DNA of 37,989 nucleotides from Nitrospirota bacterium (GTDB lineage Bacteria > Nitrospirota > Thermodesulfovibrionia > UBA6902), in NCBI GenBank assembly GCA_011040095.1, contig DRDE01000038.1, positions 1 to 37,989 of the forward strand, given 5' to 3'. Positions 2,351 through 22,708 of this stretch are shown here, piece after piece. Within the stretch, counting starts at the first letter, position 1. Each line of letters starts with the position of its first letter. The position numbers were made by a program, and so were the translations under genes. The notes below the pieces were generated by a model. That model worked only from the letters and a program-made list of their open reading frames with translations. It had not been told where the DNA came from and did not search any database.

Positions 2351-2950
2351 ATGATGAAATTGAAATGTGTCTTATTTATATTAAGTTTTTTGTTATTAAC
2401 GTTTAATGCTTCTTTTGCAGATGCCGCACTTATTGACCTTAACGATTTCTTTGCAGACCCTTCGGTTACTGTCTCTGCTGACGGCAGCAGCGCAACTATG
2501 TATGAAGACTCGTCCTTATCCACGGTATTGCTTTCCAATGACCCGTGGTTTGGAGACCCCGGGGTATTTATTCCCTCAATTGCGTTGAGCCTGACATTTG
2601 ATTACAGTTTTACCGAAGGCGCCGGGAATGATGATGAATTTTATGCCTATCTTCTTGACCCTACCACTGGTTCAGCGCTTACAGACAGCGGGGGTAATAC
2701 CCTTGATTTATGGTTAGGCAGCTCACAGAGCGGAACCGTTAGCTGGGATTTAAGCGGCGCTTCTTTTTTAGGTCAGACTGTGGGGATGGAGTTTCAACTG
2801 TATGCTTTTGATGTTGCAGCCGATTCATTCGTGTCAATAAATAATGCATCCGTTAACGTTGTCCCTGAACCGGCAACAGTATTATTATTAGGGTCCGGGT
2901 TATTAGGAACAGGGTTATTAAGATTCGTAAAAAGGAAGATGAAAAAATAA
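2351..2950 (+). CDS. PEP-CTERM sorting domain protein (exosortase substrate)
   Basis: Signal peptide; acidic body; C-terminal VPEPATVLLLGSGLLG + TM helix + KRKMKK; GGAGG RBS. Confidence 0.93.
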   Translation: MMKLKCVLFILSFLLLTFNASFADAALIDLNDFFADPSVTVSADGSSATMYEDSSLSTVLLSNDPWFGDPGVFIPSIALSLTFDYSFTEGAGNDDEFYAYLLDPTTGSALTDSGGNTLDLWLGSSQSGTVSWDLSGASFLGQTVGMEFQLYAFDVAADSFVSINNASVNVVPEPATVLLLGSGLLGTGLLRFVKRKMKK

Positions 2951-2961
2951 AAAAATTTTAC

Positions 2962-2989
2962 TTGACAAAAAAATAACATGCGTTATAAT
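2962..2989 (+). promoter_or_regulatory. Sigma70-type promoter for the PKD-Rhs genes
   Basis: Perfect TTGACA (2962-2967), 16-bp spacer, perfect TATAAT (2984-2989), ~110 bp upstream of ATG 3101. Confidence 0.7.
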
Positions 2990-3100
2990 TAGATTCATTC
3001 TTGCGCTGTTAACTTCATGAAGTAGCGGATGGCTGGGGTTTAATAACAACCTTCAATAAATATATATAAACAATTTTATGCATCCTTTCGGGGGGGACTC

Positions 3101-6100
3101 ATGAAAGCAAGGTATTTAAGTGTCTTAATATTCCTCTTTTTCTTATCACTCCTTATTTTCACAAATAATGTTTATACGTCAACCGATGTCACCTCTTTTG
3201 TACAAATTAATAAATCGGGTGCATACTTTAACCGCAGGACAGGTCAGACCTCATACGATGTTACATTAACGAATATATCCAGCGAAACAATACAAAAACC
3301 GGTTTACGTTGCAATAGAAAATCTTAGTCCGGGCGAGGTTACAGTTGCCAATCCTGACGGGTATACAGCCGGAGGAGACCCATATTACGATTACAGCGCC
3401 TTGATTGCCGGCGCTGCTTTTGATCCGGGAGGGATATCTTCCCCGAAGAAGTGGATATTTAATAACCCGAACAGGCTGCGTTTTACCTATACAACTGTCG
3501 TCTACGGACCTTATTCTGTTAACGATCCGCCGGTAGCCGATGCAGGGATGGATCAAAATGCCCTTATAGAAGTTCCTGTCTATCTGGATGGAAGCGGAAG
3601 TTATGATCCTGACGGAGATTTAATTACTTTCCAATGGACAATGACTGGATCTCCTTCCGGCAGCTCAGCAGCTTTGAGCGGTATTGATACAGCAAGCCCA
3701 CGTGTAACACCTGATATTAGTGGTGACTATACATTTCAGCTCACTGTAAACGACAGTCAGGCAGACAGCGCCCCTGATGAGGTAATTATTCATGCATCCG
3801 TTTCCAATGTTGCTCCGAATGCTGATGCCGGACCGGATCAGTCTGTATTAGTGGATTCCACGGTATTCCTCGACGGAAGCGGGAGTTTTGATCCGGATAA
3901 CGCTCCGGGCCCTTACTCTTTTATTTGGACGTTTACCGGAACACCTTTAAATAGTATGTTCGGCGGCACCGCTCTTACCGGAGTAAGTCCTGTTTTTATC
4001 CCTGATATAGAGGGGGAATTTGTTGTTGAGTTATGGGTAAGTGATGGAGACCTTAGTGATTATGATCAGGTCTCGATTTTTGCAGGGATATCCAATCAGG
4101 CGCCTAATGCTGATGCGGGAGCGGATCAGATAGTCTGGCAGTTGAGTCAGTCGGTAAGTCTGGATGGTAGCGCAAGCTTTGATTCTGATAATGGACCGTC
4201 TGTCCTGACTTATCAATGGTCGTTTGTGTCGCTTCCTGTCGGAAGTACGTTAACCAATACAGGTATAGTTAACGCAGCCACGTCTATTGCCGGCTTCACT
4301 CCTGATGTATATGGAGCTTACCTCCTGAATCTGGAAGTTAATGACGGTGCATTGACTGATAATGACCATACACTGGTAATTGTAACTACCGAAAATAATC
4401 CTCCACAAATAGATATTACGAATCCCGTGGATGGCGCATTTATAAACACGACTAAACCAGATATAACCATAACATTCAGTGACGATGATTCCGGGATAGA
4501 CATTAATAGCTTTAGTGCAGAAATAAACGGGGTGGACAGTAGTTCGTCATTTATTATTTCAGAAAGCGGGGCAAGTTATCAGGTTACAACTGATTTGCCT
4601 GTAGGAAACAATACCATAACTTCCAGTATCAGTGACAATGCAGGAAACTCCGCAAGTGCAACCTCAAACTTCAGAATAGGAATCTTAAGAGCTATTCCCG
4701 GGGCGAGCCCGACTTCAGGGCCATCTCCACTGACAGTTCGATTTACTACAGATGGAGAGGACCCGGCTGGAACAATTCAGATATTTCGATGGGATTTTGA
4801 CGGCAACGGAACATGGGACACGTATGACACCGTTGCGCGGGATTATAACCATACTTATAATAATTCCGGGGTCTATAATGCGACATTGTATGTACAAAGC
4901 AGTACGGGGAAAACTGCTACAGCAAGCATTCTTATAACTGTTGAAAATAATCCGCCGGTAGCGACCGCAGATGTAGTCCCTTCCAATGGAGAAGTTCCCT
5001 TAACAGTTCAATGCATAGGTTCAGGAACAGATAGCGATGGGCAAGTAGTGCTTTACGAATGGGATTTTGATGGAGACGGGACATATGATTGGTCTTCCAC
5101 AACAACCGGGAATACCTCTTATACATACACTTCTCCGGGAACTTTCCAGGCAGTTTTCAGGGTAACAGACAACAATGGCTTGACATCAACGGCATTACCG
5201 CCTAATACGATCGTCAGGGCAGGCCCACCGGGATCGCCGACAGCAACTGCTTCAGCCAATCCAACAAGCGGCAATGCCCCGCTGAATGTCAGTTTGAACT
5301 GCACAGCAACTGACCCCGACAACGATATAGAACTTTATGAATGGGATTTTGAAAGCGACGGTGTTTATGACTGGTCATCTTCAACGACAGGAAGTACTTC
5401 TCATACATACAATGAAGCAGGGACTCATACAGCAAGCTGCAGGGTTACCGATTCTACGGGCTTAACAGGTATAGATCAGATTCTGGTTACAGTTGATATC
5501 GATGTCAGCCTTTCGATTCAGAAGGATACTGTTGGATTTCTTGATGATTCAGGGATGACGGCAAGCGCCAGCAGTCAGTATAGCTCGTATTATGCACCGG
5601 ATAAGGCGATTGACGGAAATACAGGGACATATTGGGTATCATGCTGGTATTGTACTTCTGGTGAGTGGTTTGAGGTATCATTTAACGCCCCCCAAAAGGT
5701 TTCAGGTTTTACGATAACTTGGTACAACTCATCCTCTTACAAAATGTCCAGAGCTAAGATAGAAGTTTTTAATGAGAACAATGATGTCCTGTATAGTCAG
5801 GAAGCCGATTTTTCAGGCAGCGTATCTAACGTCAGCTTGCCTGATGTGGAAAATGTTACGAGAATTCGGTTGACTACCATAAACTATTCAAGTAGCTATT
5901 ACATTATAATCAAAGAATTTGACGTGAATAGTACGCCGATGTCAGTCGGTCAGCCAGAACCTACCGGAACCAATATCGATACTTCAATCAGCGCAGCAAC
6001 ACAGGTTTCTATATTGATAAAAGATTCGGATGGGAACGTGGTTCGAACACTTGTGAACAACGAATCGCGAGATACGGGCTCTTATTCGGATTATTGGGAT

Positions 6101-6889
6101 GTTAAAGATGATTATGGAATTGTGGCAAATGATGGAGTCTATTATGCTATTTTGCAATATATAGTTGACGGGGAGGTTAGAACTCTTGATTTAGCCGATT
6201 CCACAGGTGGTACCAGGCATAAGTTTCCTTTTGGCTCGGGTTGCAACCGAAGAAGTTCGTTTAATTCAAACTTCAGTCCATTTGAAGATAATTTCCTGCC
6301 TTTAACGTTTGAGCTTTGTACGGCACAAGAGGTTACGGCGTTTATTGGACCGCTGTGGGGAGGAGCAGATGCGACCAGAGTAAGAACAATTGTTAACAGG
6401 GAAGTTTTTCCTGCAGGAACTCATACTATTTACTGGGATGGGTTAGATGATAATGGCAATATAGCTGAAGCTTCTCCGGGAGATAGTCTGATAACCGGAT
6501 TTTGGCGTTATGATCTTTCTGATAATGCCATTGTTGTAACAGGCGGAAAACCTGTAATAACGAATATTAGTGCAACTCCAAATTATTTTAGTCCCTTTAG
6601 TGAAAAGTGTGATGAAAACGGGAATGGAGAAGGTATAACTATAAATTACACACTTTCTGAAGATGTAGCCACTGTTGAGCTTCAAGTATACAGTGTTAAG
6701 ACCGGATCATTATTAAGGACAAGTTCTTTCAGTAATGTTCCATCCGGAGATAACGCGATCTTTTGGGATGGAAAGAATAACAATGGTGAATATGTAGATA
6801 TAGGTGATTATAGCATTGGTCTTATAGCTATTGATGCTCAGGGAAATGAATCAATGTTCAGATATACCCTGGTGAGAATAGATTATTAA
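3101..6889 (+). CDS. Large secreted multidomain protein: three PxADAGxDQ PKD/REJ-like domains, Ig-like domain, three PKD domains, F5/8 type C (discoidin)-like domain, three FlgD Ig-like domains
   Basis: Signal peptide; PVADAG/PNADAG + LDGSGSxDPD motifs; WDFDGDG/WDFESDG PKD motifs; ASASSQYS..KAIDGNTGTYW; VRT..(Y/F)WDGKxxxG-type motifs. Confidence 0.88.
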   Translation: MKARYLSVLIFLFFLSLLIFTNNVYTSTDVTSFVQINKSGAYFNRRTGQTSYDVTLTNISSETIQKPVYVAIENLSPGEVTVANPDGYTAGGDPYYDYSALIAGAAFDPGGISSPKKWIFNNPNRLRFTYTTVVYGPYSVNDPPVADAGMDQNALIEVPVYLDGSGSYDPDGDLITFQWTMTGSPSGSSAALSGIDTASPRVTPDISGDYTFQLTVNDSQADSAPDEVIIHASVSNVAPNADAGPDQSVLVDSTVFLDGSGSFDPDNAPGPYSFIWTFTGTPLNSMFGGTALTGVSPVFIPDIEGEFVVELWVSDGDLSDYDQVSIFAGISNQAPNADAGADQIVWQLSQSVSLDGSASFDSDNGPSVLTYQWSFVSLPVGSTLTNTGIVNAATSIAGFTPDVYGAYLLNLEVNDGALTDNDHTLVIVTTENNPPQIDITNPVDGAFINTTKPDITITFSDDDSGIDINSFSAEINGVDSSSSFIISESGASYQVTTDLPVGNNTITSSISDNAGNSASATSNFRIGILRAIPGASPTSGPSPLTVRFTTDGEDPAGTIQIFRWDFDGNGTWDTYDTVARDYNHTYNNSGVYNATLYVQSSTGKTATASILITVENNPPVATADVVPSNGEVPLTVQCIGSGTDSDGQVVLYEWDFDGDGTYDWSSTTTGNTSYTYTSPGTFQAVFRVTDNNGLTSTALPPNTIVRAGPPGSPTATASANPTSGNAPLNVSLNCTATDPDNDIELYEWDFESDGVYDWSSSTTGSTSHTYNEAGTHTASCRVTDSTGLTGIDQILVTVDIDVSLSIQKDTVGFLDDSGMTASASSQYSSYYAPDKAIDGNTGTYWVSCWYCTSGEWFEVSFNAPQKVSGFTITWYNSSSYKMSRAKIEVFNENNDVLYSQEADFSGSVSNVSLPDVENVTRIRLTTINYSSSYYIIIKEFDVNSTPMSVGQPEPTGTNIDTSISAATQVSILIKDSDGNVVRTLVNNESRDTGSYSDYWDVKDDYGIVANDGVYYAILQYIVDGEVRTLDLADSTGGTRHKFPFGSGCNRRSSFNSNFSPFEDNFLPLTFELCTAQEVTAFIGPLWGGADATRVRTIVNREVFPAGTHTIYWDGLDDNGNIAEASPGDSLITGFWRYDLSDNAIVVTGGKPVITNISATPNYFSPFSEKCDENGNGEGITINYTLSEDVATVELQVYSVKTGSLLRTSSFSNVPSGDNAIFWDGKNNNGEYVDIGDYSIGLIAIDAQGNESMFRYTLVRIDY

Positions 6890-6932
6890 TTTTTTTTAAG
6901 CTCAATATTTATTATGGAAAAAAGGAGAGAAA

Positions 6933-9900
6933 ATGCGGTGTAACAAATACGTAAAAAGGATAAATATTGCTCTTTTCTTAATCTTGCTGGTTACTCTATT
7001 TCTGCCCAATAACAGTTTCTCCTATAACAAAAGCTGGGACCAGGGACATAAAGTTGTTGAGACATCTCCTGGAAGTGGTTTATGGGGACGTTGGGACTAT
7101 GATGGTAAATGGGTAGGAACTTACACTTCAAAAGAGTGCTGTGAATTGCTATGTAAGATTTGTCCTGTTTATGCCAACACTGGACGCTTGCAAAAAACAT
7201 ATACGGATTTAACTGTTCCCGGTGTTGGTCCGGCATTGAATATTACAAGGACATATAACAGCCAGGAGTGGGCCTCCGGTCTTTTGGGGTATGGCTGGAC
7301 ATTTAACTTAGGCCGGCGGTTAATCATCGGCCGAAGTAATGCCGGTGATAAAATTATAGGAGTTTTGCTTGAGACCGGGGAAAAGAATTTCTATAAAGAA
7401 CACACGGATAACACACTGGAGCGTTTGACAGACTATGGCGCAACATACAAGCTAATCAAGAATGCGGACAATACTTACACCATAAAAAACATAGACGGCA
7501 CAAGATATGAACTCAGGAAAGACGGGAAAATAGCAAAGGTTATCGATAAGAATAACAACGAACTGGTATTTACATATAATGCCGTTGGTTGCCTGACTAG
7601 GATTACCAATGCTTCAGGCAACTATGTGGACCTGGTGCTTGGGCCGAATGGAAAGATTGCAAACATTTCTGATAATCTGGGCAGAACCATCAGCTATGGA
7701 TATGATGATAACGGAAATCTTACCTCAGTCACCGACCCTATGGGCAATATTACTCAATACGTATATGACAGTGATAACCTGCTTACCCAGATCATTGACG
7801 CAAGAGGCAATACAGTTGAGACCGTCTCATATGACAACAACCAGCCTCCCAGAGTCTCTACTTTCACAGAAAAGGGAGAAACTTACACTGTAGCTTATTA
7901 TAACGGCTACACGGTGAAAACCGATTCTTCAGGAAATGCATGGACTTATTATTACAATGATGTCGGCGTAATAACAAAGGTTATTGATCCCTTAGGCAAT
8001 GTCAAGGAACTCTCTCTCAATAAGATCACGGCTACCAGTAAAGACTGGGAGGAGGATTTAAACGGCAACCGTACGACATATACCTATGACGTTGATGGAA
8101 ATATTGCAAGCAAGACCGATCCATTGGGGAATACGTGGACATATACATATGTTGCAGGGACAGACTGGTTGTTGACGGAAACCGATCCTATGGGGCATGT
8201 AACGAAATATGAATATGATTCAAATGGCAATATTGTAAAAATTACCCGTGATTACGGTGGCCCTTTAGAAAATGCAACAACATATACATATAACAGTGCT
8301 GGAAACAGAACAAGTATGACTGATTCGTTGGGGAATGTAACGCTATACGCATATGACTCTGACGGAAATTTAACTCAAGTCACAGATGCTTTAGGCAATG
8401 TTACAACATATACATATGACAGCTTCGGAAATAAACTCACAGAAACGGATCCGCTGGGTAACACAACAACATATACATATGATCTTTTAAACAGGTTGAC
8501 TTCTGTTACAGATGCCTTAGGGAATAGCACCACTATCACTTACGATCCTAACGGGAATATTCAGAGTTTGACAGATGCTGCCGGTAATACGACTTCTCAT
8601 ACCTATGATGCTTATAACCGACTCATCCAGACAACTGACCCATTAGGTAATGTAACTCAATTTACATATGATTCACAGGGAAACAAGACCAGTATAGTAG
8701 ATGCAAATGGTAATACAACCTCTTTTTCGTATAATGTGTTAAATCGATTAGTTTCTGAAACAAATGCTTTAGGCAACACCACGAGTTATACATATGATGC
8801 TAATGGCAACCGCACAGCTATAACGGATGCCAATGGCAATACAACTACTTTTACCTATGATGCATTGAATAGACTAATCAAGACAACATATCCTGATGGA
8901 ACCTTTGAGACCTTCTCTTATAATGCTGATGGCAATCTTATTGCCAGGACAGATCGCAACGGTAATACCATCAACAGCACCTATGATTCATTGCACAGGC
9001 TGACAGTAAAGACTTATCCTGATGCTACTACAACCAATTTTACTTACGATACGAATGGAAACATATTAACAGCGAGCAATTCTGATGTCTCATATGCTTT
9101 TACTTATGATGCTCTAAATCGGGTAACCCGGGTTACCAATGTCAGCCTGGGCAAGAGTGTTTCTTATTCTTACATCTGTTGCGGTTTAAAGAGCAGCATG
9201 ACCAATCCTGAAGGAGGGGTTACTACTTACACCTATGATGCCTTGAAGAGGCTAACAAGTCTGACCAATCCTCAAGGTGAAACTACGAGCTACACGTACG
9301 ATAACCTGTCCAGAACTGTTAGAAAAGACCTTGCAAATGGCAGCTATACTATTTACAACTATGATGCAGTAAGCAGACTTGTAAGTCTCATTAATAAAAC
9401 TTCTGCTAATTCTGTAATATCGAGTTATAGCTATACCTATGACAATACCAGCAACAGAACTTCAATGACGACCTTGTCAGGAAAACATAATTACACATAC
9501 GATAAAATTTACGAGTTACTGCAGGCTACTCACCCCACTTCATCTACAGAAACGTACACATATGACCCCGTTTATAACAGATTGACTTCAGATAGTTATC
9601 CAAGCTGGACTTACGACAGTAATAACAGGCTAACCTCTTTCAATGGTACAAGTTTTACATATGATGCCAATGGGAATACTATTTCTAAGACAGATACTTC
9701 CGGTGTAACAACTTACCAATATGACTATGAAAATAAATTGGTTAGAATCGATTATCCTGATGGCACATATAGCGAATATAGATATGATCCATTTGGTGAC
9801 AGGATTAAAAAGGATGTTAATGGCACAGTTACATGGTTTGTCTATGATCTTATGAAAGAATTGCCCGATATGCTTGCTGAGTACGATGGGGGCAACTCAT

Positions 9901-10664: not shown

Positions 10665-10744
10665 TCTGGGGAAGTTTAAAGAGATGGTTGAAATTGGTAA
10701 AATGTATAATATTATAAAGAGAATAAATTGTACGAGGTCAGTTT

Positions 10745-13400: not shown

Positions 13401-13566
13401 ATGAATATTGAAATTGAAGAAGGGTAAAGTGAAGATAAATTCTGCCACGGCTGATGTAAAAGAACTGGAGGGAATACTTCACAAGCCCGGTAGAAAGGTG
13501 GTTTCTATTGTAAAAATGAAACAGGCTGTTAAAAAACGTTTTAGAAAAAGGGGTCTATTATGTTAA
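13401..13566 (+). pseudogene. AbrB/MazE-type antitoxin C-terminal remnant with a frameshift
   Basis: MNIEIEEG* followed in the shifted frame by GKVKINSATADVKELEGILHKPGRKVVSIVKMKQAV, resembling the tail of AbrB-family antitoxins. Confidence 0.45.
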
Positions 13567-14027: not shown

Positions 14028-14137
14028 ATCCAATCCACGAAGGGCGCTAAGATTCGCGAAGTGGTAAGTTGAAATAAACAAACTTATTTGTATCATGAGA
14101 ATTGCATTTTTTAAAGTACTTATGAAAAATAACATCA

Positions 14138-14461
14138 ATGACTATAGATATCTTAGAGTTCATAAAATCATGTATTAAACGTCGCAGAATATACTGGACA
14201 TATCATGTTAATGTGAGATTGAAGGGACGATCAATCTCCCGTGAACTTGTATTGGCATCCGTGGACTCCTATGAAATAATTGAGGAATATCCTGAAGATA
14301 AATATTTACCAAGTTATCTGATTTATGCAGAATATAAAGAAGAGATTATTCACATTCTTATTGCCGCAGATCAAGAGAATGATAATATAAGGATCATTAC
14401 TGCTTACAGACCTTCACTGGATAAATGGAAGAGTGATTTTAAGACAAGGAGAATACAATGA
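14138..14461 (+). CDS. DUF4258 domain protein (RelE/BrnT-like putative toxin)
   Basis: WTYHV..R, IIEEYPEDKYLPSYLI, IITAYRP..W motifs. Confidence 0.85.
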   Translation: MTIDILEFIKSCIKRRRIYWTYHVNVRLKGRSISRELVLASVDSYEIIEEYPEDKYLPSYLIYAEYKEEIIHILIAADQENDNIRIITAYRPSLDKWKSDFKTRRIQ

Positions 14462-14679
14462 ACTGTCATAACTGTGGTGGACAATTAGAGAAGGTTGCTA
14501 CTGATTTACCCTTTAAAATTAAAAGTGACTCCATTGTTATTATCAAAAAATTGCCTGTCCAGCAATGTCAAAATTGTAATGAGTATTTAATTGAAGACTC
14601 AGTGATGGAGAAAGTAGACAATATTTTGAACAAAGTTGATAAAACCGCTGAGCTTGAAATTCTCAGTTACGCTGTATAA
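14458..14679 (+). CDS. YgiT-type (MqsA-like) zinc-finger protein
   Basis: CHNCGG...CQNCNE; ATGA overlap with the DUF4258 gene. Confidence 0.85.
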   Translation: MNCHNCGGQLEKVATDLPFKIKSDSIVIIKKLPVQQCQNCNEYLIEDSVMEKVDNILNKVDKTAELEILSYAV

Positions 14680-14826
14680 GAGTTGCTGACAGTAACAGAT
14701 TTGTAATAAATCTTTCTTTTAAATTATACAGAAAAATCTGCGATCAACGAAGATCACGAAAGTTCACGAGGAAATATATGTTAGTGCATATTCGTGTCTT
14801 TCGTGGATATATTATTCTTTATAAAT

Positions 14827-15717
14827 ATGACGAAAATTATAAAGCTAATTTTATGTCTTGTGCTTATTCTTGCAGGCAATGTATATGCTGATGTATCTCA
14901 ATCAAGATTGGTATTTGTGGCTAATGTCGATGGAAATTGGGATATCTATTCCGTTGATGAAGATGGCGGCAATGTAGTCCGCCTGACATCCACTCCTTAT
15001 GATGAAAAAGACCCTGCATGGTCTTATGACAGAAAGAAAATAGTCTATGCAACAAGCGACGGTCAGTTGAATATTCTTGATATTAATACTAAAAAGTCCG
15101 GGCAGATTGCTGTTGATGAAAAAAAGACTGCCAAATTTTCTCCTTCCTTTTCACCTGATGGCAAAAACATATCATTTGTACAATTTAAATCAGGAAGCGG
15201 GGATGATACCGACCTGATAATATTCAATCTTGAAACAAAACAGAATAGAAGGGTGATTGATCAGCCTGGAGCGCAAATGTGGCCTGCATGGTCGCCTGAT
15301 GGCAGACGCCTGGTTTATACCAGTGTTCACTGTTTATCTGATTGCGGTAGAATTATCCAGGAACTCTGGATAACTGATCCAACAGGAGATTATGCCCGAC
15401 AACTTATAATGACCGGTTCGCTTTCCCAGCAACCTGCATGGTCGCCTGATGGCAATCAAATAGCCTTTTCTTCGGATAAGAGCGGTAATTTTGATATATG
15501 GATATTGTCTTTGAAAGATTGGAAATCGGAACAAATCACCATGGACGAAAATCTTGATGTAAGCCCTGCGTGGTCACCGGACGGGAACAAGCTTGCTTTT
15601 ATTTCCAACAGGACGGGGACCATGGAGATATGGATTAAAGACTTGAACAGTGCTGAACTGAGAAGATTAACGCCTTTTGGTAATAAGAATATTGAATGCA
15701 AGGACATTGCCTGGTAG
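14827..15717 (+). CDS. Secreted TolB-like PD40 beta-propeller protein
   Basis: Signal peptide ending VYA-D; repeated PAWSPDG; no TolB N-terminal domain and no tol-pal context. ATG 14827 preferred to GTG 14794. Confidence 0.88.
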   Translation: MTKIIKLILCLVLILAGNVYADVSQSRLVFVANVDGNWDIYSVDEDGGNVVRLTSTPYDEKDPAWSYDRKKIVYATSDGQLNILDINTKKSGQIAVDEKKTAKFSPSFSPDGKNISFVQFKSGSGDDTDLIIFNLETKQNRRVIDQPGAQMWPAWSPDGRRLVYTSVHCLSDCGRIIQELWITDPTGDYARQLIMTGSLSQQPAWSPDGNQIAFSSDKSGNFDIWILSLKDWKSEQITMDENLDVSPAWSPDGNKLAFISNRTGTMEIWIKDLNSAELRRLTPFGNKNIECKDIAW

Positions 15718-15781
15718 ATGATAAATCATCCCCTTAGCAAGGGGACATTAGGAATTGATTGATTTTATAAAAGGAGAAATT

Positions 15782-16984
15782 ATGAAGAAATGTATTTCTG
15801 TCTTGATTTTATTTCTAATCTATTCATGTGCTGTACAATCTGCCGTTAAAAATGATGCTCCTATTTCGCCGAAACCGGAGCTTCTTTCAGAAATACCTGC
15901 TCGAACATCGGAAGAATCAGCATTATCGCCTATTGCAGATATAAAACCACTGTATGGAAAACTGTTGTCAAATATTAAAATCTCCAAAACATCTTTTAAC
16001 CCCCAATATGGCCAAAGAGTAGATATATCTTTCCATCTCTCAAAACCTGCCAAGGTGACTACGCACGTTTATGACCCTGACTGGGAACTGGTTAAAACTA
16101 TTGTTGATGATAAAAACCTTGTTCAAGGTGAACAAATAGTTTCCTGGAATGGAAAGGATATGGATGGCAATGTTATGCCGGATGAGGCTTATTTTTGCAC
16201 CATTACTGCTGAAGATAAAACAGGGACAAAAGAAATCTATGATCCGACTACGTTTACAGGTGGAATTGAGCATGATATAACATCAGCAGACATTAGTCCG
16301 GAAAATGGAACTTTAATATATAAGATGCCGGAAATGGGAAGGGTTCTTATTCGTACAGGGATTGAAGGCGGCCCTTTGTTGAATACCGTCGTTGATTGGA
16401 AGCCCAGGATAAAAGGCATGGTGACCGAGTACTGGAACGGCAAGGATAAGGACAATCTCGTTGATCTCTATAATCATCCCAAATTCAAGATGCTTATTAC
16501 CTACTTTTCCTTACCCGATAATTCAGTTATATCCTATGGAAATAAGAGAATAGAGTATAGAGACTATAAAAGATCCCTTATTGTCCAAAGACCGGCTAAG
16601 AAGAAACGGGCAAGCCCGGCATCAAAAACCTCTCAACACTATCGTCTTTCCAGAACAGTGGATTATTCACCGGATGTGAAGATAGACTTCATAAACACTC
16701 AGGGAACAGATAGTGATGGCACCACCATTATCCTCAAAGGAAAAACCATTGTTAAGGTTGAGTTGGATGAGCAGGACAAGGTGATTTTTCAAAACCAGCA
16801 ATTTGAGATCGTTTTCTTCCTTGACAATGAGTTCTATGCTGAGGATGAAGCCGGATATACGCCATTTAACTGGGTTTGGGATCTCTCAAACGTGGAGGAA
16901 GGTGAACATTTGCTCACTGTAAATCTGTCCAGTTTTAAAGATCAGATCGGCATACTGAGTCGTAAGGTGCGGGTAGTCAAATGA
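15782..16984 (+). CDS. Lipoprotein with two FlgD Ig-like domains and a C-terminal Ig-like domain
   Basis: MKK..LIYS-C lipobox-like signal; VKTI..SWNGKDMDG and EYWNGKDKDN motifs; AGGAG RBS. Confidence 0.8.
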   Translation: MKKCISVLILFLIYSCAVQSAVKNDAPISPKPELLSEIPARTSEESALSPIADIKPLYGKLLSNIKISKTSFNPQYGQRVDISFHLSKPAKVTTHVYDPDWELVKTIVDDKNLVQGEQIVSWNGKDMDGNVMPDEAYFCTITAEDKTGTKEIYDPTTFTGGIEHDITSADISPENGTLIYKMPEMGRVLIRTGIEGGPLLNTVVDWKPRIKGMVTEYWNGKDKDNLVDLYNHPKFKMLITYFSLPDNSVISYGNKRIEYRDYKRSLIVQRPAKKKRASPASKTSQHYRLSRTVDYSPDVKIDFINTQGTDSDGTTIILKGKTIVKVELDEQDKVIFQNQQFEIVFFLDNEFYAEDEAGYTPFNWVWDLSNVEEGEHLLTVNLSSFKDQIGILSRKVRVVK

Positions 16985-17778
16985 GTCAAATGATAAATCC
17001 ACTAAAGAAGACCCTGAAGGCGCAGAGAAACGCCAGGGTTCTTTTATTATATTCGTGCCCTTGGCGTCCTTCATGGCTGATAATTGTTTTACTGTTCCTG
17101 TCCTCATGCTCAACAGTCAGGTCTGTGTCCGAACAACCGGTTATCACTCCCAAACCTGCGCTTGCATTTGAAGAACAGGTCTATGACTTTGGTATTGCCG
17201 GACCGGAACAGAAGATAAAGCATGCATTTAAATTTATAAATACCGGTTCTGAGCCTTTAAAAATTATAAAATTAAGTCCAAGCTGCGGGTGTACGGCTGC
17301 CCTTTCTTCAGAGGATGAAGTGCCGCCCGGAGGGAGTGGAGAGATACAGGCTATTCTTGAGACCAGAAAATATGCTGGCAGGCAGGAAGCCAGTATTGTA
17401 GTACATTCTAATGACCCGCTCAGGCCGGAAACCGTTCTCACCCTAAAGGGTAATATAAGGAAAGGATTAGCTGTGGTTCCTCAGGGGGTCAGTTTCGGCA
17501 ATATTCAAAAAGGAGAAACTGCTGCTGCTCAGGTGCGCATGCTGCAATTATCTAAAGACCCTTTGGTGTTAGAAAAAATTGAGGCTAATGACAAATTCCT
17601 GACTGTGGAAACTTCAAAATTCAGTGAGGAAAACAGCAGAGGTATCAATATTGATATAATGCTGAAACCCGACATTCCTGCAGGAATGTTCAGCGAGGTT
17701 ATAACGCTTCATACAAACCTGAAAAAATATCAGCGGATAGATGTCCCTGTCATAGCAAATATTCTTGAAAATGATTAA
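16981..17778 (+). CDS. DUF1573 domain protein, probable lipoprotein
   Basis: YDFG..F.F.NTG.EPL.I..L.PSCGCT signature; FLSS-C lipobox-like motif; ATGA overlap with the upstream gene. Confidence 0.85.
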   Translation: MSQMINPLKKTLKAQRNARVLLLYSCPWRPSWLIIVLLFLSSCSTVRSVSEQPVITPKPALAFEEQVYDFGIAGPEQKIKHAFKFINTGSEPLKIIKLSPSCGCTAALSSEDEVPPGGSGEIQAILETRKYAGRQEASIVVHSNDPLRPETVLTLKGNIRKGLAVVPQGVSFGNIQKGETAAAQVRMLQLSKDPLVLEKIEANDKFLTVETSKFSEENSRGINIDIMLKPDIPAGMFSEVITLHTNLKKYQRIDVPVIANILEND

Positions 17779-17982
17779 CATAAGAATCCGGTAAGGTAAG
17801 CAGCGCCAGGATGAGGGTGATGGTGCAAAATTAGCATAGTTTTCTGAAAATAAATAGTTGTTCCATCCTGTCATTGATGTTGAACTAATACATTATCAGT
17901 TCCCATGATATAATATTCTCACAATCTTTGTAAAATCAGGGCTTGGAGGTATAAGTAAAAGTCAAAATTTGGAGGAGGGTAA

Positions 17983-18441
17983 ATGGCGCGAAAACTTAAA
18001 CTCTATTTAGATACATCAGTGCCAAATGCATATGTGGATGATAAAAATCCTGTCCGGCAAGGGGTGACAAAGGACTTCTGGGCAAGACTTGATCGGTATA
18101 ACATCTTCACTTCTGAACTTGTTGTTGAAGAAATTGAAGCTACTGGCAATATAAATAAAAAGAATCAACTCCTTGACTTGATTAAAGGCTTTGAGAAACT
18201 TTCCATTAAAGGAAAAGAGACAGAGGCTTTAGCTGAAGAATATGTAAAGAGAGGTATAATCCCTGTAAAGCACATAGAAGATGCTGTTCACATCGCAGTT
18301 GCCACGGTTTATTCCCTTGATGTGCTTGTAAGCTGGAACTTTGAGCACATTGTAAAGCTGAAGACCAAAAGAGAAATTAATGTTGTCAATATATTATTGG
18401 GCTACAATCAATTGGAAATTGTTGAGCCAACTATGCTTTGA
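17983..18441 (+). CDS. PIN domain protein
   Basis: YLDTSV, EEI, EDAVHIAVA, LVSWNFEHIV motifs; GGAGG RBS. Confidence 0.9.
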   Translation: MARKLKLYLDTSVPNAYVDDKNPVRQGVTKDFWARLDRYNIFTSELVVEEIEATGNINKKNQLLDLIKGFEKLSIKGKETEALAEEYVKRGIIPVKHIEDAVHIAVATVYSLDVLVSWNFEHIVKLKTKREINVVNILLGYNQLEIVEPTML

Positions 18442-18458
18442 AAAAAGGGGGTGTCAGA

Positions 18459-18650
18459 ATGGCTTATTTCAGTGAATTTTATCAAGTAGAGGTGCGAGAC
18501 GAGATTGCAAAAGAATTCACTAATTCCCAAGGCGAGGTAGACGATATGATGGCTGGTCTTCATGAGATCAGGGTAAGGAAAGCAGAAAAAAAATATGATT
18601 TAAAAGAATTGTCTAAAAAGGTAATATCAAGAGAAAAAGTAATTTTTTAA
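18459..18650 (+). CDS. Small hypothetical protein, possible antitoxin partner of the PIN protein
   Basis: ATG 18459 after a G-rich RBS, immediately downstream of the PIN gene. Confidence 0.5.
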   Translation: MAYFSEFYQVEVRDEIAKEFTNSQGEVDDMMAGLHEIRVRKAEKKYDLKELSKKVISREKVIF

Positions 18651-18662
18651 ATGATAAAAAGA

Positions 18663-18805
18663 GAGGCTCTTGCAAAAGTCTTGTTTTGTCATTCCCGAGG
18701 TAGTAATCGAGAATCCAGTTTCTTTAAAAAACAAAAACTTCTGGATACCCGTTTTCACGGGTATGACGGCACAGGTCGTTTTGCAGGGACTTTTGCAAGA
18801 GCCTC
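18663..18805. mobile_element. 143-bp MITE (family A), copy 2, inverted relative to copy 1
   Basis: Perfect 18-bp TIR GAGGCTCTTGCAAAAGTC; ~94% identical to the reverse complement of 1897..2039. Confidence 0.88.
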
Positions 18806-18859
18806 AAGAGCATGGAATTTCAACAAGGAATTAATAGAGTCTCTATATTTTGAAGGTAA

Positions 18860-19903
18860 ATGAATAGTTCAAATAAAAAGGGGGGTGGGTTGAGACGATT
18901 TATTGCTTTATTATTGACAATATCTATCGTGTGTATTTTTACCGGCTGCACCAGAACCAGTGAAAAAGAAGTAGTGGTTTATACTTCATTAGACCAGATA
19001 TTTTCAGAGCCTGTTCTTAGGAATTTTGAAAAGGAAACCGGGATTAAAGTAAAAGCTGTTTATGATGTAGAGGCTTCAAAGACAACCGGTCTCGTTAATC
19101 GACTGATTGCAGAAAAAGAGAGACCAAAGGCGGATGTGTTCTGGAATTCAGAAGTTGCGCAGACCATTATTTTAAAGGATAAAGGCGTTTTGGCGCCGTA
19201 TCGATCTCCATCTGCTGAAGATATTCCTCAAAAATTCAGGGACAAAGAGGATTACTGGACCGGCTTTGCTGCAAGGGCAAGGGTCCTAATATATAACACA
19301 AATCTCCTTAAAGACTCAGACCTCCCAAAATCCATTTTTGAACTGACTGAGCCTCAATGGAAGGGCAAGGTGGCTTTAGCCTATCCACTATTTGGCACTA
19401 CTGCAACACATGTAGCTGCCCTGTATTCCACTCTTGGACAGGAAAAGACCGAGGCATTTTTAAAGGCTTTAAAGGCTAATGATGTAGTTATTGTCAACGG
19501 CAACTCTGTTTCACGTGATGTTGTGGTTGAAGGGCAGCTTCCTTTGGGCTTTACTGATACAGATGATGTGAATGTGGCTATACAGTCGGGAAAACCGGTT
19601 AAAATGCTCTTTCCTGACAAAGAAGGCATTGGCACGCTGCTCATTCCAAATACGGTGGCATTGATTAAAGGCGCTCCGCATCCGGGAGAGGCAAAGGTGT
19701 TTATTGATTACTTGTTGAGCCGGAAGGTTGAGAGCAAGCTTGCTTTTTCAGAATCAGCCCAGATACCTGTAAGGGATGGTGTGAGTAAGCCGCCGCATAT
19801 ACCGGATATTTCCTCAATAGGGGTCATGGAAGTTGATTATTATAAAATAGCCGGGAACATGAAACGGGCTGCCAAATTCAGCCAGAACCTGTTCGTAAGA
19901 TAA
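18860..19903 (+). CDS. ABC transporter substrate-binding lipoprotein, Fe3+/AfuA-FutA-like family
   Basis: FTG-C lipobox; VVVYTS, FEKETGIKV, PKADVFW, RARVLIYN motifs. Confidence 0.9.
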   Translation: MNSSNKKGGGLRRFIALLLTISIVCIFTGCTRTSEKEVVVYTSLDQIFSEPVLRNFEKETGIKVKAVYDVEASKTTGLVNRLIAEKERPKADVFWNSEVAQTIILKDKGVLAPYRSPSAEDIPQKFRDKEDYWTGFAARARVLIYNTNLLKDSDLPKSIFELTEPQWKGKVALAYPLFGTTATHVAALYSTLGQEKTEAFLKALKANDVVIVNGNSVSRDVVVEGQLPLGFTDTDDVNVAIQSGKPVKMLFPDKEGIGTLLIPNTVALIKGAPHPGEAKVFIDYLLSRKVESKLAFSESAQIPVRDGVSKPPHIPDISSIGVMEVDYYKIAGNMKRAAKFSQNLFVR

Positions 19904-19908
19904 ACAGA

Positions 19909-21465
19909 ATGAAACCTCCCCGTTTTTTTTCGCTGGCGGTTATTATTCTGTTTTCCATTATTGTTCTCCTGCCGATCGGCTATATGATATCGGCTCCTTT
20001 ATGGGGAGAGACACCAGTTCAGGCAGACAGTGCAGGCGCCCTGTTTGACAGCCGGCATATTACCTTGTCACTGAACAGCCTTGGATTGGCAGGGGGCACA
20101 ACAATTCTCAGTCTGATAATAGGAGTTCCTCTGGCAATTCTTATTTCCCGCACCAACTTATGGGGAAGGAGGGTGTTTGGAATTGTTTATATAATACCGA
20201 TACTCATTCCTCCTTACATCCACGCTATTGTATGGAGACACCTGAATGGTTTTATTAAGAGATTTCTGTCCCTGGATATCCACAGCCTGTGGGGTGCAAT
20301 ATTTGTTCTTACACTTGCATATTTCCCTTTTGTAACTCTTCTGACTCAGAGTGGACTTAAGTCTGTTGACAGGAATATGGAAGAATCTTCCCTTCTCTAT
20401 CATGGGAATTGGAAAACTTTGAAACGCATTACCCTTCCCCTTGTATCACCTCACATTATTTCAGGGGCGATATTTGTATTTATATTTACCATTGTCGATT
20501 TTGCTGTTCCCGACATATTCAGAGTAAAAGTTTATCCTGTAGAGATATTTATCCAGTTCAGCGCATTTTATGATGAAAGAGCCGCAGCTATTTATTCTTT
20601 GCCTTTAATAGCAGTTACCCTGATTTTACTTATCCTGCAGAAGAGACATATGAAAGACCGGGCTTACGTCCAGATATCCGGGGGTATCTCAAAGGCAGTG
20701 AGGTATAATCTTGGACGTCTGAATACGGCCGCATTCGGCATTTGCCTTTTAATCATCTGTCTTTCCGTGTTAATTCCCGTAGGGGTATTATTAAAGGTTG
20801 CAGGTCCTTTTTCCAGCTACATCAGAGTGTTTAGTATGTCCGGAGAACAGATTCTATACAGTCTGGTTCTTGCTTCTACAGGCGCAGTGTTGGCAGTCTG
20901 TTTGGCCTTTTCCATTTCATACCTGATTGAAAGAGCAAAGGCAGGATTAAAGACGCCTCTTGAATTTGCTTCGTTTGTTCCCCTTGCCATTCCTGCTACT
21001 GCCCTCGGGATCGGTCTTATAAAGGTCTGGAACCGGCCTGTAGCCGACATTATATATGCAAGTCCGCTTATTATTGTCCTGGGATATATAGCCCGTTTTA
21101 TTCCATTTGTCATAATCGCCGTGACATCGGGCATGAAACAGGTTGGACAACGTGTGGAGGAGGCAGCGTTTTTAACTACCGGCAACTGGAGTAAAGTAAT
21201 GTACAGAATTATAATCCCCCTGACAAAACATAGTCTGATTGCCGGTTTTTTTATCGTATTCATACTATCAATCGGAGAACTCGGGACTACACTTCTTGTC
21301 ATACCACCCGGAAGGGAGACAGTTCCGATAAAGATTTATAATTTGATGCATTACGGCGCTGATCAGATGGTTGCTGCATTGTGTCTCATATTAATTGCAA
21401 TAATTCTTGCCTTTTCAGGGCTGTTTTTAATAGTTCATAAAAGTCTCAATAAACAGAGCGCTTAA
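19909..21465 (+). CDS. ABC transporter permease, FbpB-like (duplicated TM domain)
   Basis: About 12 hydrophobic helices; two EAA-like loops (MEESS, VEEAA). Confidence 0.9.
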   Translation: MKPPRFFSLAVIILFSIIVLLPIGYMISAPLWGETPVQADSAGALFDSRHITLSLNSLGLAGGTTILSLIIGVPLAILISRTNLWGRRVFGIVYIIPILIPPYIHAIVWRHLNGFIKRFLSLDIHSLWGAIFVLTLAYFPFVTLLTQSGLKSVDRNMEESSLLYHGNWKTLKRITLPLVSPHIISGAIFVFIFTIVDFAVPDIFRVKVYPVEIFIQFSAFYDERAAAIYSLPLIAVTLILLILQKRHMKDRAYVQISGGISKAVRYNLGRLNTAAFGICLLIICLSVLIPVGVLLKVAGPFSSYIRVFSMSGEQILYSLVLASTGAVLAVCLAFSISYLIERAKAGLKTPLEFASFVPLAIPATALGIGLIKVWNRPVADIIYASPLIIVLGYIARFIPFVIIAVTSGMKQVGQRVEEAAFLTTGNWSKVMYRIIIPLTKHSLIAGFFIVFILSIGELGTTLLVIPPGRETVPIKIYNLMHYGADQMVAALCLILIAIILAFSGLFLIVHKSLNKQSA

Positions 21466-22185
21466 ATGTTAAGTATTGAGCATCTGACAAAAAGATATGG
21501 TGATACAGAAGCTGTAAAGGACCTGACACTCGAACTTTCTTTAAATGAAATCCTGGCAATCATAGGGCCGTCCGGATGCGGTAAAACTACCCTTCTGAGG
21601 TTGACAGCCGGTTTTGAAAGCCCTGATAAGGGGAGGATATTAATTGACGGCGTTGAGGCCAGCGCGCCAAATTATTTAATAGCGCCTTACAGGAGAAGCT
21701 TGTCCATGATATTCCAGGATCTTGCCCTCTGGCCTCACATGACAGTGAAAGAGCATGTGGAATTTGTTCTTAAGAAAAACAAGCTTTCAAGAGGTGATAT
21801 TAATTTAAAAATCGACCGGAACCTTGAAGACGTAAATTTAAATGGATACGGCAATCGAAGACCTCATGAGCTTTCCGGAGGCGAGAAACAGAGACTGGCT
21901 ATTGCAAGGGCGCTGGCATCAGAACCGACTTATTTGCTGATGGATGAGCCTTTCAGCAACCTTGATTCAATCTTGAAAGATGATTTGCAGGAATTGCTCC
22001 TCAGCCTCAAAAATCATCATGGGATGAGTATTATGTATGTAACCCATAATATAGAAGAAGCGCTTGCGCTTGCCGACAGGATAGCCGTCATTAATAACGG
22101 GAGGCTTGAACAAATCGATACTAAAGATAATATACTGAATAATCCCAAAAATGATTTTGTTCGTCGTCTTTTAAGAATTAAATAA
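21466..22185 (+). CDS. ABC transporter ATP-binding protein, FbpC-like without the C-terminal TOBE domain
   Basis: GPSGCGKT, LSGGEKQR, LLMDEPF, YVTH motifs; only 239 aa. Confidence 0.95.
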   Translation: MLSIEHLTKRYGDTEAVKDLTLELSLNEILAIIGPSGCGKTTLLRLTAGFESPDKGRILIDGVEASAPNYLIAPYRRSLSMIFQDLALWPHMTVKEHVEFVLKKNKLSRGDINLKIDRNLEDVNLNGYGNRRPHELSGGEKQRLAIARALASEPTYLLMDEPFSNLDSILKDDLQELLLSLKNHHGMSIMYVTHNIEEALALADRIAVINNGRLEQIDTKDNILNNPKNDFVRRLLRIK

Positions 22186-22192
22186 ATTTTAT

Positions 22193-22708
22193 ATGAAGAC
22201 CATAACGCCAAGAGAGTTGTTCCTTATTATATTTTTTATCTTATTTATTCTTGTTGCATATGCAGGCGCTGGCAATGCCCATGCAGAAGAAAAACCCCTT
22301 GTTTTTTCCACGTGGGAAGGGTTTGAGGTAGATAAGTGTTCATCGATATGGCTTATAAAGCGGTTTATTGACAAAAATGCCGTTATAAAATTCTTTCCCA
22401 AGGGGGAGGAAATAAAAGAGGGTATTCCATTTGATACGCCGGATGCTAAATTAAGAAGGTATCACAACATGTCTACATTCGAATCTATTTTGAAACATTA
22501 TAAGCTGCGGGATCGAAAACTTCTCTACATAGGCAAAATCATCCATGATATAGAAGTAAACATATGGGAGAGAAAGGCGCTTAAGGAAACTTTAATGGTG
22601 CAGAAGGCTGTCAACGAAATTATAACGAATTCAAAAAATAATGATAAAATTATAGATAAAAGTCTTAAGTATTTTGATTCTCTGTACATAAAATTTTTTA
22701 GAAAGTAA
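22193..22708 (+). CDS. Secreted ChrB C-terminal-domain (chromate resistance exported protein-like) protein
   Basis: VD..S.WLIKRFID...F...IPFD...TFE.IL..Y.L.D...I..IIHDI motif set; signal peptide ending AHA-E. Confidence 0.78.
   Translation: MKTITPRELFLIIFFILFILVAYAGAGNAHAEEKPLVFSTWEGFEVDKCSSIWLIKRFIDKNAVIKFFPKGEEIKEGIPFDTPDAKLRRYHNMSTFESILKHYKLRDRKLLYIGKIIHDIEVNIWERKALKETLMVQKAVNEIITNSKNNDKIIDKSLKYFDSLYIKFFRK

Follow-up and report, generated by a model that had tools for sequence, protein, structure and literature searches.

Sec-exported Rhs polymorphic toxins with a shared N-terminal motif are co-inherited with a set of envelope proteins in diderm bacteria

How diderm bacteria bring their Sec-exported Rhs/YD-shell toxins to the targets has yet to be settled, and the question is taken up here with a locus on contig DRDE01000038.1 of a Nitrospirota bacterium (assembly GCA_011040095.1). 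The window, i.e. the whole stretch of 37,989 nucleotides that we analysed, is contig C38 of a 2.76 Mb metagenome-assembled genome (MAG) that is 79% complete. Between positions 2351 and 22708 it carries 12 plus-strand genes for exported, envelope or ABC-transporter proteins, interspersed with toxin-antitoxin (TA)-like genes; one of the twelve (6933–10664) encodes an Rhs protein of 1243 residues. A preliminary description of the sequence had located these co-oriented genes, with the TA-like genes between them, at or near the positions at which we find them, and had proposed that they form a dedicated display or delivery locus tied to a signal-peptide Rhs. We find that Rhs is co-inherited with five envelope proteins: a large scaffold (SCAF), the small helical protein cc155, a PD40 propeller, a FlgD-Ig lipoprotein (FlgDlipo) and a ChrB_C protein. 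In our judgement the region is probably a module that moves horizontally and has at its centre a separate subclass of the Rhs polymorphic toxins exported by Sec, with helper proteins that would fold, anchor or display the toxin.

The evidence for co-inheritance comes from synteny anchored on FlgDlipo. One genome per species was scanned with an alignment of 20 FlgDlipo homologues, yielding 39 loci, namely 23 with full-length FlgDlipo relatives (L023–L045) and 16 matching the FlgD-Ig domain only. The module genes were sought in these loci by tblastn with all window proteins, and Rhs was counted within the fetched 10 kb. Rhs is present within 10 kb in 14/16 FlgDlipo loci that have enough flank (L024, L025, L030, L031, L033, L034, L035, L037, L038, L040, L041, L042, L043 and L045); two of the 23 loci, L036 and L039 (Verrucomicrobiota labels), have ample flank but no Rhs, and seven are too short to tell. 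The record labels assign the Rhs-linked loci to Desulfobacterota, Acidobacteriota (Pyrinomonadaceae, Thermoanaerobaculia and Bryobacter), Gammaproteobacteria (Chromatiaceae, Thiosymbion, Exilibacterium and one uncultured) and one unclassified MAG. PD40 adjoins FlgDlipo in all 21 genome loci with flank. SCAF lies upstream of Rhs in 12 of the 14 Rhs-linked loci, with its PKD region and C-terminal ~320 residues conserved; a SCAF-like FlgD-Ig/Big protein is found in L045, and in L042 SCAF is located just beyond the fetched sequence, as seen in L143 from the same strain. ChrB_C is encoded in 10/14 Rhs-linked loci as fetched and upstream in an eleventh (the genome of L042), and two of the remaining Rhs-linked contigs without it stop just past FlgDlipo. 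All-against-all clustering of every open reading frame (ORF) of at least 70 residues in 24 loci left SCAF, cc155, Rhs, ChrB_C, PD40 and FlgDlipo as conserved families; it yielded no further conserved gene, including no outer-membrane barrel and no dedicated ATPase. The conserved set is, therefore, SCAF, cc155, Rhs with a variable downstream gene, ChrB_C, PD40 and FlgDlipo, and since the same families recur together in other phyla, the arrangement is far beyond chance.

The order of the genes differs between lineages. Type A loci (Acidobacteriota, several Gammaproteobacteria and L043) read SCAF, cc155, Rhs, a small variable gene, a long ChrB_C, PD40 and FlgDlipo, and type D loci (Desulfobacterota and the window) read SCAF, Rhs, a variable gene, cc155, PD40, FlgDlipo, DUF1573, an ABC importer and a short exported ChrB_C. 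The Chromatiaceae locus L038 is a hybrid that follows the type A order, yet has the importer and the short ChrB_C. In the Desulfobacterota locus G240 the importer and ChrB_C are followed downstream by several PKD genes, SCAF, Rhs, PD40 and FlgDlipo, and in the cultured strain behind L042 and L143 ChrB_C is located upstream of SCAF on the opposite strand. Linkage that outlasts such reshuffling of gene order argues for function rather than inertia. Insertions within the module were also seen: L038 contains a DDE_3 transposase gene (7773–8864, E 8e-24) between the immunity gene and PD40, L034 gives a weak IS200-like match only (6583–7671, E 0.007), and in L042 (Exilibacterium) two large DUF4350/ABC_transp_aux-like proteins of 813 and 792 residues (3183–7999) separate the immunity gene from PD40.

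Do the helpers accompany Rhs proteins in general, or a particular kind of Rhs? Signal peptides, lipoboxes and transmembrane segments were scored by a simple heuristic (a charged n-region followed by a hydrophobic h-region). By this measure the Rhs of the window has the Sec-type signal ascribed to it (predicted signal peptide at residues 1–30), and a signal-like N-terminus is common to its 13 aligned relatives. In these proteins the predicted signal peptide is followed, 3–5 residues on, by the motif (P)PW-D-[TQ]-G-H, then by an acidic or proline-rich spacer and then by DUF6531. In an alignment of 13 Rhs N-termini the W, D and H never vary, and (P)PWDxGH is present in 13 of the 14 aligned, with L045 as the exception. 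In the window the motif reads W-D-Q-G-H (residues 35–39, 7035–7049, plus strand) and begins five residues past the predicted signal-peptidase site; G240 has PWDSGH and L143 FPWDQGH, each followed by a poly-proline spacer.

We used the Rhs N-terminus as a reverse anchor in metagenomes. A scan of metagenome contigs with an alignment of seven Rhs N-termini gave 60 loci, comprising 17 close relatives and 43 DUF6531-only loci that served as controls. Fifteen of the 17 close relatives have WD[TQ]GH and two have the variant PPFATDH. SCAF is present in 14/14 of those with at least 1.7 kb of upstream sequence, cc155 in 14/17, and downstream genes in 9/9 of those with at least 5 kb downstream; in seven of these nine the contig holds ChrB_C, PD40 and FlgDlipo, and in the other two it ends at ChrB_C. 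In the 43 control loci, a regular-expression search found no (P)PWDxGH motif, and tblastn found helper families in 0/22 of those with at least 2.5 kb upstream and in 0/13 of those with at least 5 kb downstream. As the helper genes track the motif in 17 versus 43 loci, (P)PWDxGH marks a helper-linked Rhs subclass. The synteny that was expected of a dedicated locus across distant genomes is thus seen from both anchors (14/16 from FlgDlipo, 17 versus 43 from Rhs), and none of the outcomes named beforehand as speaking against it – homologues scattered without synteny to Rhs, no predicted Rhs signal, ABC and ChrB_C genes never linked to the cluster elsewhere – occurred. More Rhs and PKD fragments are present on contigs C116, C82 and C73 of the window's genome, with no helpers nearby in the assembled pieces.

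The remainder of the Rhs protein has the organisation of a polymorphic toxin. Domains of the window ORFs were annotated by Pfam and NCBIfam searches. RHS_repeat matches in 20 stretches (E 2.4e-127, Pfam) and TIGR01643 in 11 (NCBIfam); the Rhs-associated core (TIGR03696, residues 1039–1115, E 3.2e-24) closes with PINNSDPEGL (residues 1106–1115, 10248–10277, plus strand), a predicted autoproteolysis and core-end motif fitting PxxxxDPxGL. Beyond it lies a Cys-rich, putative C-terminal toxin domain of 128 residues (10278–10661, plus strand) with no significant Pfam family (best DUF3750, E 0.16). This domain is weakly similar to the C-terminal domains of L025 and L034 across the first 45–100 residues only, and that of L025 has no significant Pfam match either (best PPPDE, E 0.5). 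Among the 15 Rhs proteins compared, the domains past the DPxGL-type motif vary: one is Tlde1 (E 6.2e-09) and most others have no family. The ORFs directly 3′ of Rhs are all singletons, some cytoplasmic in appearance and others with a signal or membrane segments. Variable C-terminal domains followed by singleton ORFs of mixed localisation fit polymorphic toxin/immunity pairs that act in different compartments. Both the variable C-terminal domain and the variable downstream gene of Rhs polymorphic toxins are therefore present, with the toxin and immunity roles being putative. In the window, the gene directly downstream of Rhs (10745–11644, plus strand) encodes a 299-residue propeller-like protein with a signal-like N-terminus and weak propeller matches, all below the Pfam cut-offs. 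Its sole homologue is found at the same position in L025 (E 4e-14, 24% identity). Because it directly follows Rhs and recurs only in L025, we read it as a candidate immunity gene. The preliminary description had counted its product among the propellers that assemble or export the cocoon, but immunity outside the cytoplasm is the likelier role.

Signal-like N-termini are predicted for 10 of the 12 genes and lipoboxes for three, those at 15782, 16981 and 18860. SCAF (3101–6889, plus strand) has 1262 residues and a predicted Sec signal; it matches PKD_4, a K319L-like PKD domain, F5_F8_type_C (residues 821–933) and two copies of FlgD_ig in Pfam, and no type IX secretion C-terminal-domain family in NCBIfam. 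Its C-terminal module is conserved and its N-terminal part varies between loci. The first module of FlgDlipo is homologous to the C-terminal FlgD-Ig module of SCAF (hhalign probability 96%), and tblastn cross-hits between the two proteins span ~190–265 residues. cc155 (13560–14027, plus strand), a small exported helical protein of 155 residues with no Pfam or NCBIfam family, has orthologues in 11 other loci and a nearly invariant Cys just past the predicted signal peptide; its stop codon overlaps the Rhs start in Acidobacteriota and Gammaproteobacteria loci. PD40 (14794 or 14827 to 15717, plus strand) is a TolB-like six-bladed propeller with a predicted Sec signal (PD40, E 2.5e-46). It appears not to be a TolB: it scores 170.8 against TolB TIGR02800, which has a cut-off of 343.15, it has no N-terminal TolB domain, and the propeller part alone matches.

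FlgDlipo (15755 or 15782 to 16984, plus strand; 400 residues, FlgD_ig, lipobox IYSC) is the most conserved member, with 174 homologues in the protein database, the best 120 of which are 48–100% identical. Its structural model (mean pLDDT 70) has three tandem β-sandwiches, and Foldseek returned generic tandem Ig/FN3 matches only (TM ~0.2). Among cluster representatives no fusion of FlgDlipo to PD40 or Rhs was found, and neither was one in a search for longer forms, which counts as weak evidence. The relatives P0351, P0334 and P0341 are Redoxin/Thioredoxin_8 fusions, one of them with a weak CcmH match; such fusions in the family hint at periplasmic thiol-disulfide chemistry. tblastn found no paralogues of FlgDlipo, cc155, ChrB_C, DUF1573 or the importer's substrate-binding protein (SBP) in the 79% complete genome of the window.

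ChrB_C is a core member of the module. It occurs in two forms, a long one fused to a membrane region and a short, exported one behind an FbpA-like importer, and its linkage is kept through three gene orders. The long form has an N-terminal multi-pass membrane region of ~220 residues, for which a weak DUF6789 match (E 6.5e-4) and Atlas scores of 0.87 are leads only. The short form of the window (22193–22708, plus strand; 171 residues, Pfam E 2e-34) consists of ChrB_C alone behind a predicted signal peptide and is thus probably not a ChrB chromate regulator; it is 89% identical to its counterpart in a same-genus genome and to a cluster representative named Nitrospirae, and ChrB-like frames of ~335–350 residues in relatives are 25–34% identical to it. 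The modelled structure (pLDDT 92) has an α/β fold closest to the uncharacterised 6mtz_B (Z 11.7, rmsd 3.1 over 134 residues), with N-domains of DHH-type phosphoesterases next (Z 5–7.5), a likeness of modelled fold and not of function. Foldseek gave nothing at E ≤ 0.001, a profile search of PDB sequences gave nothing meaningful, and a text search of the literature for '6MTZ' found nothing.

The importer consists of an SBP lipoprotein (18860–19903) that matches ferric-binding proteins of the PDB (best E 7.2e-30), a fused two-domain permease (19909–21465; two BPD_transp_1 domains and 13 transmembrane-like segments) and an ATPase (21466–22185; ABC_tran, no transmembrane-like segment), all on the plus strand. 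With its FbpA-like binding protein, two-domain permease and ATPase it has the composition of the FbpABC type, with Fe3+ as the putative substrate; in NCBIfam, PhnS2 reaches 123.6, well short of its cut-off of 392.75. Upstream lies a DUF1573 lipoprotein gene (16981–17778, plus strand; Pfam E 4.3e-26, SCGC motif) that overlaps the preceding stop by 4 bp; its product scores 76 bits against a (seleno)protein family of NCBIfam that has a cut-off of 100. The importer is module-linked in L023, L025, L026, L028, L038 and G240, and the DUF1573 gene is found in six other loci with Desulfobacterota, Deltaproteobacteria or unclassified 'bacterium' (L044) labels. Both are lineage-specific add-ons. The tie of ABC and ChrB_C genes to the cluster, which had been offered tentatively, is real, with ChrB_C as the core member (10/14 genome loci with an eleventh upstream, and 9/9 metagenome loci with at least 5 kb downstream). 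The single Rfam match in the window is a tRNA (29434–29505), so that the ABC genes have no riboswitch match upstream.

The module is rare and patchy. No full-length FlgDlipo homologue was found in the 40 nearest relatives searched, which gave FlgD-Ig domain matches only (best E 5e-9). At E ≤ 1e-30, FlgDlipo is present in 5/151 sampled genomes of the phylum of L031, the query's own included and four of the five distant (4/150 without genome G074, which is flagged as unpublished), and in 2/151 genomes of Desulfobacterota, the phylum of L025; the short ChrB_C (E ≤ 1e-20) is confined to the same two Desulfobacterota genomes. A FlgDlipo profile retrieved 755 cluster representatives at E ≤ 1e-30, giant FlgD-Ig repeat proteins included; among the best 150, ~100 are proteins with a single stretch and a length of roughly 340–420 residues. 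The G+C content of the island is 0.34–0.44, below that of its flanks (0.43–0.50). Given this low G+C and the absence of FlgDlipo from the 40 nearest relatives, the module is accessory and probably transferred. Pairwise distances of FlgDlipo, PD40, Rhs and SCAF correlate over 19 loci (Spearman 0.57–0.85; 0/999 permutations reach the observed values), which fits block inheritance, although shared ancestry alone would give such a correlation too. In a same-genus sister (L134, G001:C32, 12089–15485) the last 142 permease codons, the ATPase and ChrB_C are left at 96% nucleotide identity, and this remnant abuts a reverse-transcriptase ORF (RVT_1, E 9.5e-31), suggesting that the sister locus was truncated by a retroelement or a rearrangement.

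Three TA-like inserts split the module in the window: 11865–13382, with an AbiEii-like nucleotidyltransferase (12750–13382) and an unassigned 151-residue ORF (11865–12320, −) that has no Pfam match; 14138–14679, with DUF4258 (14138–14461) and an MqsA-like ORF beside it (14458–14679); and 17983–18863, with a PIN gene (17983–18441) and two 70-residue ORFs. A 77% identical partial copy of the 151-residue ORF lies on contig C7. Between the PIN and SBP genes there is an element of 143 bp (18663–18805) whose terminal inverted repeats are perfect over 18 bp and which resembles a miniature inverted-repeat transposable element (MITE). Its summed contig depths of ~106 to 15,400 in four metagenome runs, with many different flanks, indicate that it is mobile and highly repeated in that community. 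From 4956 to 21310 the sequence is tiled without differences by contigs of other runs, which may come from the same population; on a contig of another study 17762 runs on into 18964 without the PIN gene and the repeat, and in an abundant relative the DUF1573 and SBP genes are separated by 1046 other letters. These alternative junctions mark the TA-like genes, at least the PIN insert, as strain-variable inserts across which the adjacency of DUF1573 and importer is kept. The PEP-CTERM gene at the left (2351–2950, plus strand), which had been counted as part of the system, is a singleton in the 24-locus clustering with no blastp counterpart in any other locus. It has the C-terminal motif (26.7 bits in Pfam, cut-off 20.7) and is window-specific and probably outside the system. 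We accordingly leave the TA-like genes, the MITE and this PEP-CTERM gene out of the module. At the left island edge, the overlapping minus-strand ORFs 1–900 and 839–1471 cluster together and may be a split or frameshifted gene; one of them has a weak BNR_4 match (27.0 bits, cut-off 27.3). To the right of the module, 23093–37970 is a housekeeping region (pheST, rplT, infC, thrS, bioW/bioB and others).

How does the module compare with known systems? Rhs effectors delivered by type VI secretion systems (T6SS), such as RhsA, Tse5 and Tse15, travel with PAAR/VgrG and EagR chaperones. The window Rhs shares with them the YD cocoon, a DUF6531-type N-terminal region, a predicted autoproteolytic core ending in DPxGL and a polymorphic C-terminal domain with a downstream immunity gene. 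Unlike them, it has a predicted Sec signal and no PAAR or prePAAR, there is no vgrG, hcp or DUF1795 gene nearby, and five exported or envelope helpers accompany the module Rhs, whether or not TssC was found in the genome. The reported absence of PAAR, VgrG, Hcp, EagR, TcA/TcB and CdiB genes is borne out by Pfam, in which none of the 35 window ORFs scanned matches PAAR, VgrG, Hcp, DUF1795/EagR, TcA/TcB or ShlB/CdiB. WapA-type Rhs proteins are Sec-dependent and belong to Gram-positive bacteria. They have in common with the module a signal-peptide Rhs toxin with an immunity gene and independence of T6SS; however, the hosts of the module are diderms with lipoproteins, TolB-like propellers and secretins (labels Nitrospirota/Nitrospirae, Desulfobacterota, Acidobacteriota and Gammaproteobacteria), its Rhs has no cell-wall-binding domain in Pfam, and it comes with a conserved, dedicated set of helpers. 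Tc (ABC) toxin complexes (TcA-TcB-TcC) combine an Rhs cocoon with a β-propeller and the Ig-like receptor-binding domains of a partner. The module likewise pairs an Rhs cocoon with a β-propeller and with Ig-like domains of a partner protein, but Pfam detected no TcA-like channel, SpvB or TcB-type fused propeller in Rhs or its neighbours, the module components have predicted Sec signals, and the toxins include the bacteria-directed Tlde1. The Tol-Pal system, finally, consists of the periplasmic TolB propeller, to which colicins bind through a TolB box, and the outer-membrane lipoprotein Pal. Similarly, the module pairs a putatively periplasmic PD40 propeller with a putative outer-membrane lipoprotein, and by analogy with the colicin TolB box the propeller might bind a short peptide of Trp, Asp and Gly that is carried by a disordered stretch at the N-terminus; in contrast to Tol-Pal, the propeller is without the TolB N-domain and below the TolB cut-off, and the lipoprotein is an Ig-like stalk and not an OmpA-like Pal. 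Colicin TolB boxes, TonB-like proline spacers and Tc/teneurin architecture thus serve as analogies for the Rhs N-terminus and for the module.

The preliminary description had treated signal-peptide Rhs as the Gram-positive route, which is too strong: in the available part of their text, Zhang et al. 2012 (PMC3482391) list Sec-dependent ('T2SS', after the type II secretion system) RHS toxins in many diderm phyla. The window Rhs falls in this 'T2SS' RHS class as outlined there. FlgD, TolB, ChrB, PKD and DUF1573 have 0 occurrences in that part of PMC3482391, and neither the helper set nor the N-terminal motif is described in it. The recently described teneurin-like proteins (TLPs), going by the accessible portions of their descriptions, are YD-shell toxins that both diderms and monoderms export through Sec; their C-terminal domain is polymorphic and an immunity gene lies downstream (10.1101/2025.11.11.687626; PMC13018210). 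They occur rarely and patchily among Pseudomonadota, Thermodesulfobacteriota, Acidobacteriota and others, with no obvious delivery machinery known (10.1101/2025.11.11.687626). The TLP domain list given there – lipoprotein anchor, Ig/PKD-type adhesion domains, β-propeller, plug and shell – mirrors the parts of the module. However, whereas TLPs hold FN-plug, NHL propeller and YD-shell in one chain, the module has PD40 propeller, anchor and adhesin array as separate genes, and no TLP counterpart of ChrB_C or cc155 is seen in those portions. The window Rhs chain has no NHL match in Pfam and reaches 25.4 bits for TEN_YD-shell against a cut-off of 50, so it lies outside the TLP definition. By analogy, the parts list of the module resembles a teneurin-like toxin split over several genes.

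Neither TssC nor Hcp was found in the window's genome at its 79% completeness. Among ten other carrier genomes TssC is present in six and was not found in four. The link to T6SS-less genomes foreseen for such a locus is therefore seen in some carriers and not in others: the module is T6SS-independent, but not confined to T6SS-less cells. As the module encodes no outer-membrane channel, crossing this membrane would depend on a general route; the window's genome has three secretin genes, and a T2SS-type secretin, surface lipoprotein export or vesicles could provide the exit.

We infer for the helpers roles in maturation, anchoring, display or delivery, which could be arranged as follows. After Sec export the cocoon would fold in the periplasm, aided by cc155, whose gene is translationally coupled to Rhs in many loci. 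The N-terminal peptide on its spacer may then dock the cocoon to the propeller, to FlgD-Ig modules or to both, with FlgDlipo anchoring the complex to the outer membrane. SCAF, which has its FlgD-Ig module in common with FlgDlipo, might be a long PKD stalk, with a discoidin lectin-type domain in the window, that serves display or the binding of targets. Together with its membrane partner, ChrB_C would form the inner-membrane link, e.g. in sensing, gating or ligand uptake. Put together, and tentatively, since we hold this full version somewhat less probable than its opposite, the module would be a T6SS-independent two-step pathway (Sec, then an envelope complex) for the display or delivery of Rhs cocoon toxins in diderms. 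(P)PWDxGH would be a sorting peptide on a spacer, a lipoprotein-anchored FlgD-Ig/PKD stalk with a TolB-like propeller would be the apparatus, and ChrB_C would couple it to the inner membrane via its own membrane domain or the ABC transporter: a teneurin-like toxin split into a multi-protein machine.

Several points weigh against a helper-assisted toxin module of this kind. The contacts among its proteins are a proposal from gene linkage and sequence; complex prediction with PD40, cc155, FlgDlipo and the Rhs N-terminal peptide (residues 31–85; ipSAE 0.01) speaks neither for nor against them. The signal peptides of the module proteins are heuristic predictions, and the tblastn thresholds applied to the control loci could miss very divergent helper analogues. 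What ChrB_C and the Fe3+-type importer would contribute to toxin delivery is not obvious, six of the ten carriers also hold a T6SS, and Acidobacteriota-type loci contain neither an outer-membrane channel nor a dedicated ATPase, leaving 'export' without a visible engine. Finally, the PD40–FlgDlipo pair occurs without Rhs in the two Verrucomicrobiota loci L036 and L039 (~9500–12050), next to genes for a DegT aminotransferase, a GDP-mannose dehydratase, B12-radical SAM proteins, an ABC exporter and an S8 peptidase, and distant FlgDlipo relatives are fused to thioredoxin-like domains; for both reasons the pair may be a general envelope module.

Could the helpers be an adhesion or cell-surface (matrix or S-layer-like) module in their own right, on which the Rhs toxin rides as kin-discrimination or competition cargo? 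The Verrucomicrobiota pair, standing alone among polysaccharide genes, would fit, as would the PKD, discoidin and Ig-like domains of SCAF, a typical adhesin-like array with a varying N-terminal part and a conserved C-terminal module, and the generic tandem Ig/FN3 stalk of FlgDlipo. Yet in these data SCAF and cc155 occur only beside motif-bearing Rhs (14/14 versus 0/22), and the invariant N-terminal peptide of the Rhs subclass argues for specific recognition and not for loose association, so we regard this explanation as rather unlikely. A periplasmic metal, oxyanion or thiol-redox system, in which importer and ChrB_C are the functional core and the cocoon is a non-toxin cargo holder or container, would account for the match of the SBP to ferric-binding proteins, the core status of ChrB_C, the Redoxin/thioredoxin fusions of FlgDlipo relatives, the DUF1573 CxC motif with its 76 bits to the (seleno)protein family (cut-off 100) and the Cys-rich C-terminal domain of the window. 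It is very doubtful in the face of polymorphic C-terminal domains followed by unrelated small genes, a toxin/immunity hallmark, of the Tlde1 toxin domain in one of them, and of Acidobacteriota-type loci that have no ABC importer at all.

That Rhs and its immunity gene are the sole functional unit and the other genes passengers of the island seems hardly credible. The island is accessory, low in G+C and peppered with TA-like genes and a MITE, and the sister species keeps a remnant only; but linkage kept over four or more phyla and four or more gene orders, and absent from 43 control Rhs loci, is not how passengers would be kept, and the synteny data already contradict it. A single recently spread element is unlikely as well, the identities between loci being 30–60%. 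We therefore retain the reading of a module in which helper proteins serve a distinct Rhs subclass.

The openly available full texts searched, main text only, contain no description of Rhs linked with FlgD-Ig, PD40/TolB-like, ChrB or DUF1573 proteins. Signal-peptide Rhs toxins of diderms are already known as a class, going by the available part of PMC3482391, and what appears to be new is the N-terminal motif together with the helper set, which stands a fair chance of being a pathway for delivery or display that is new as well. For the question of how Sec-exported Rhs/YD-shell toxins of diderms reach their targets, the module supplies testable candidates: five conserved helper families and a short N-terminal address motif that separates helper-linked from ordinary Rhs (17 versus 43 loci). 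The repeatedly kept link with ChrB_C and an Fe3+-type importer is unexpected. As the module is found in poorly studied environmental phyla and also in at least one cultured gammaproteobacterium, genetics are feasible. If the proposal is true, it would provide the first functional context for ChrB_C outside chromate operons, for the FlgD-Ig lipoprotein family and for the helical protein cc155.

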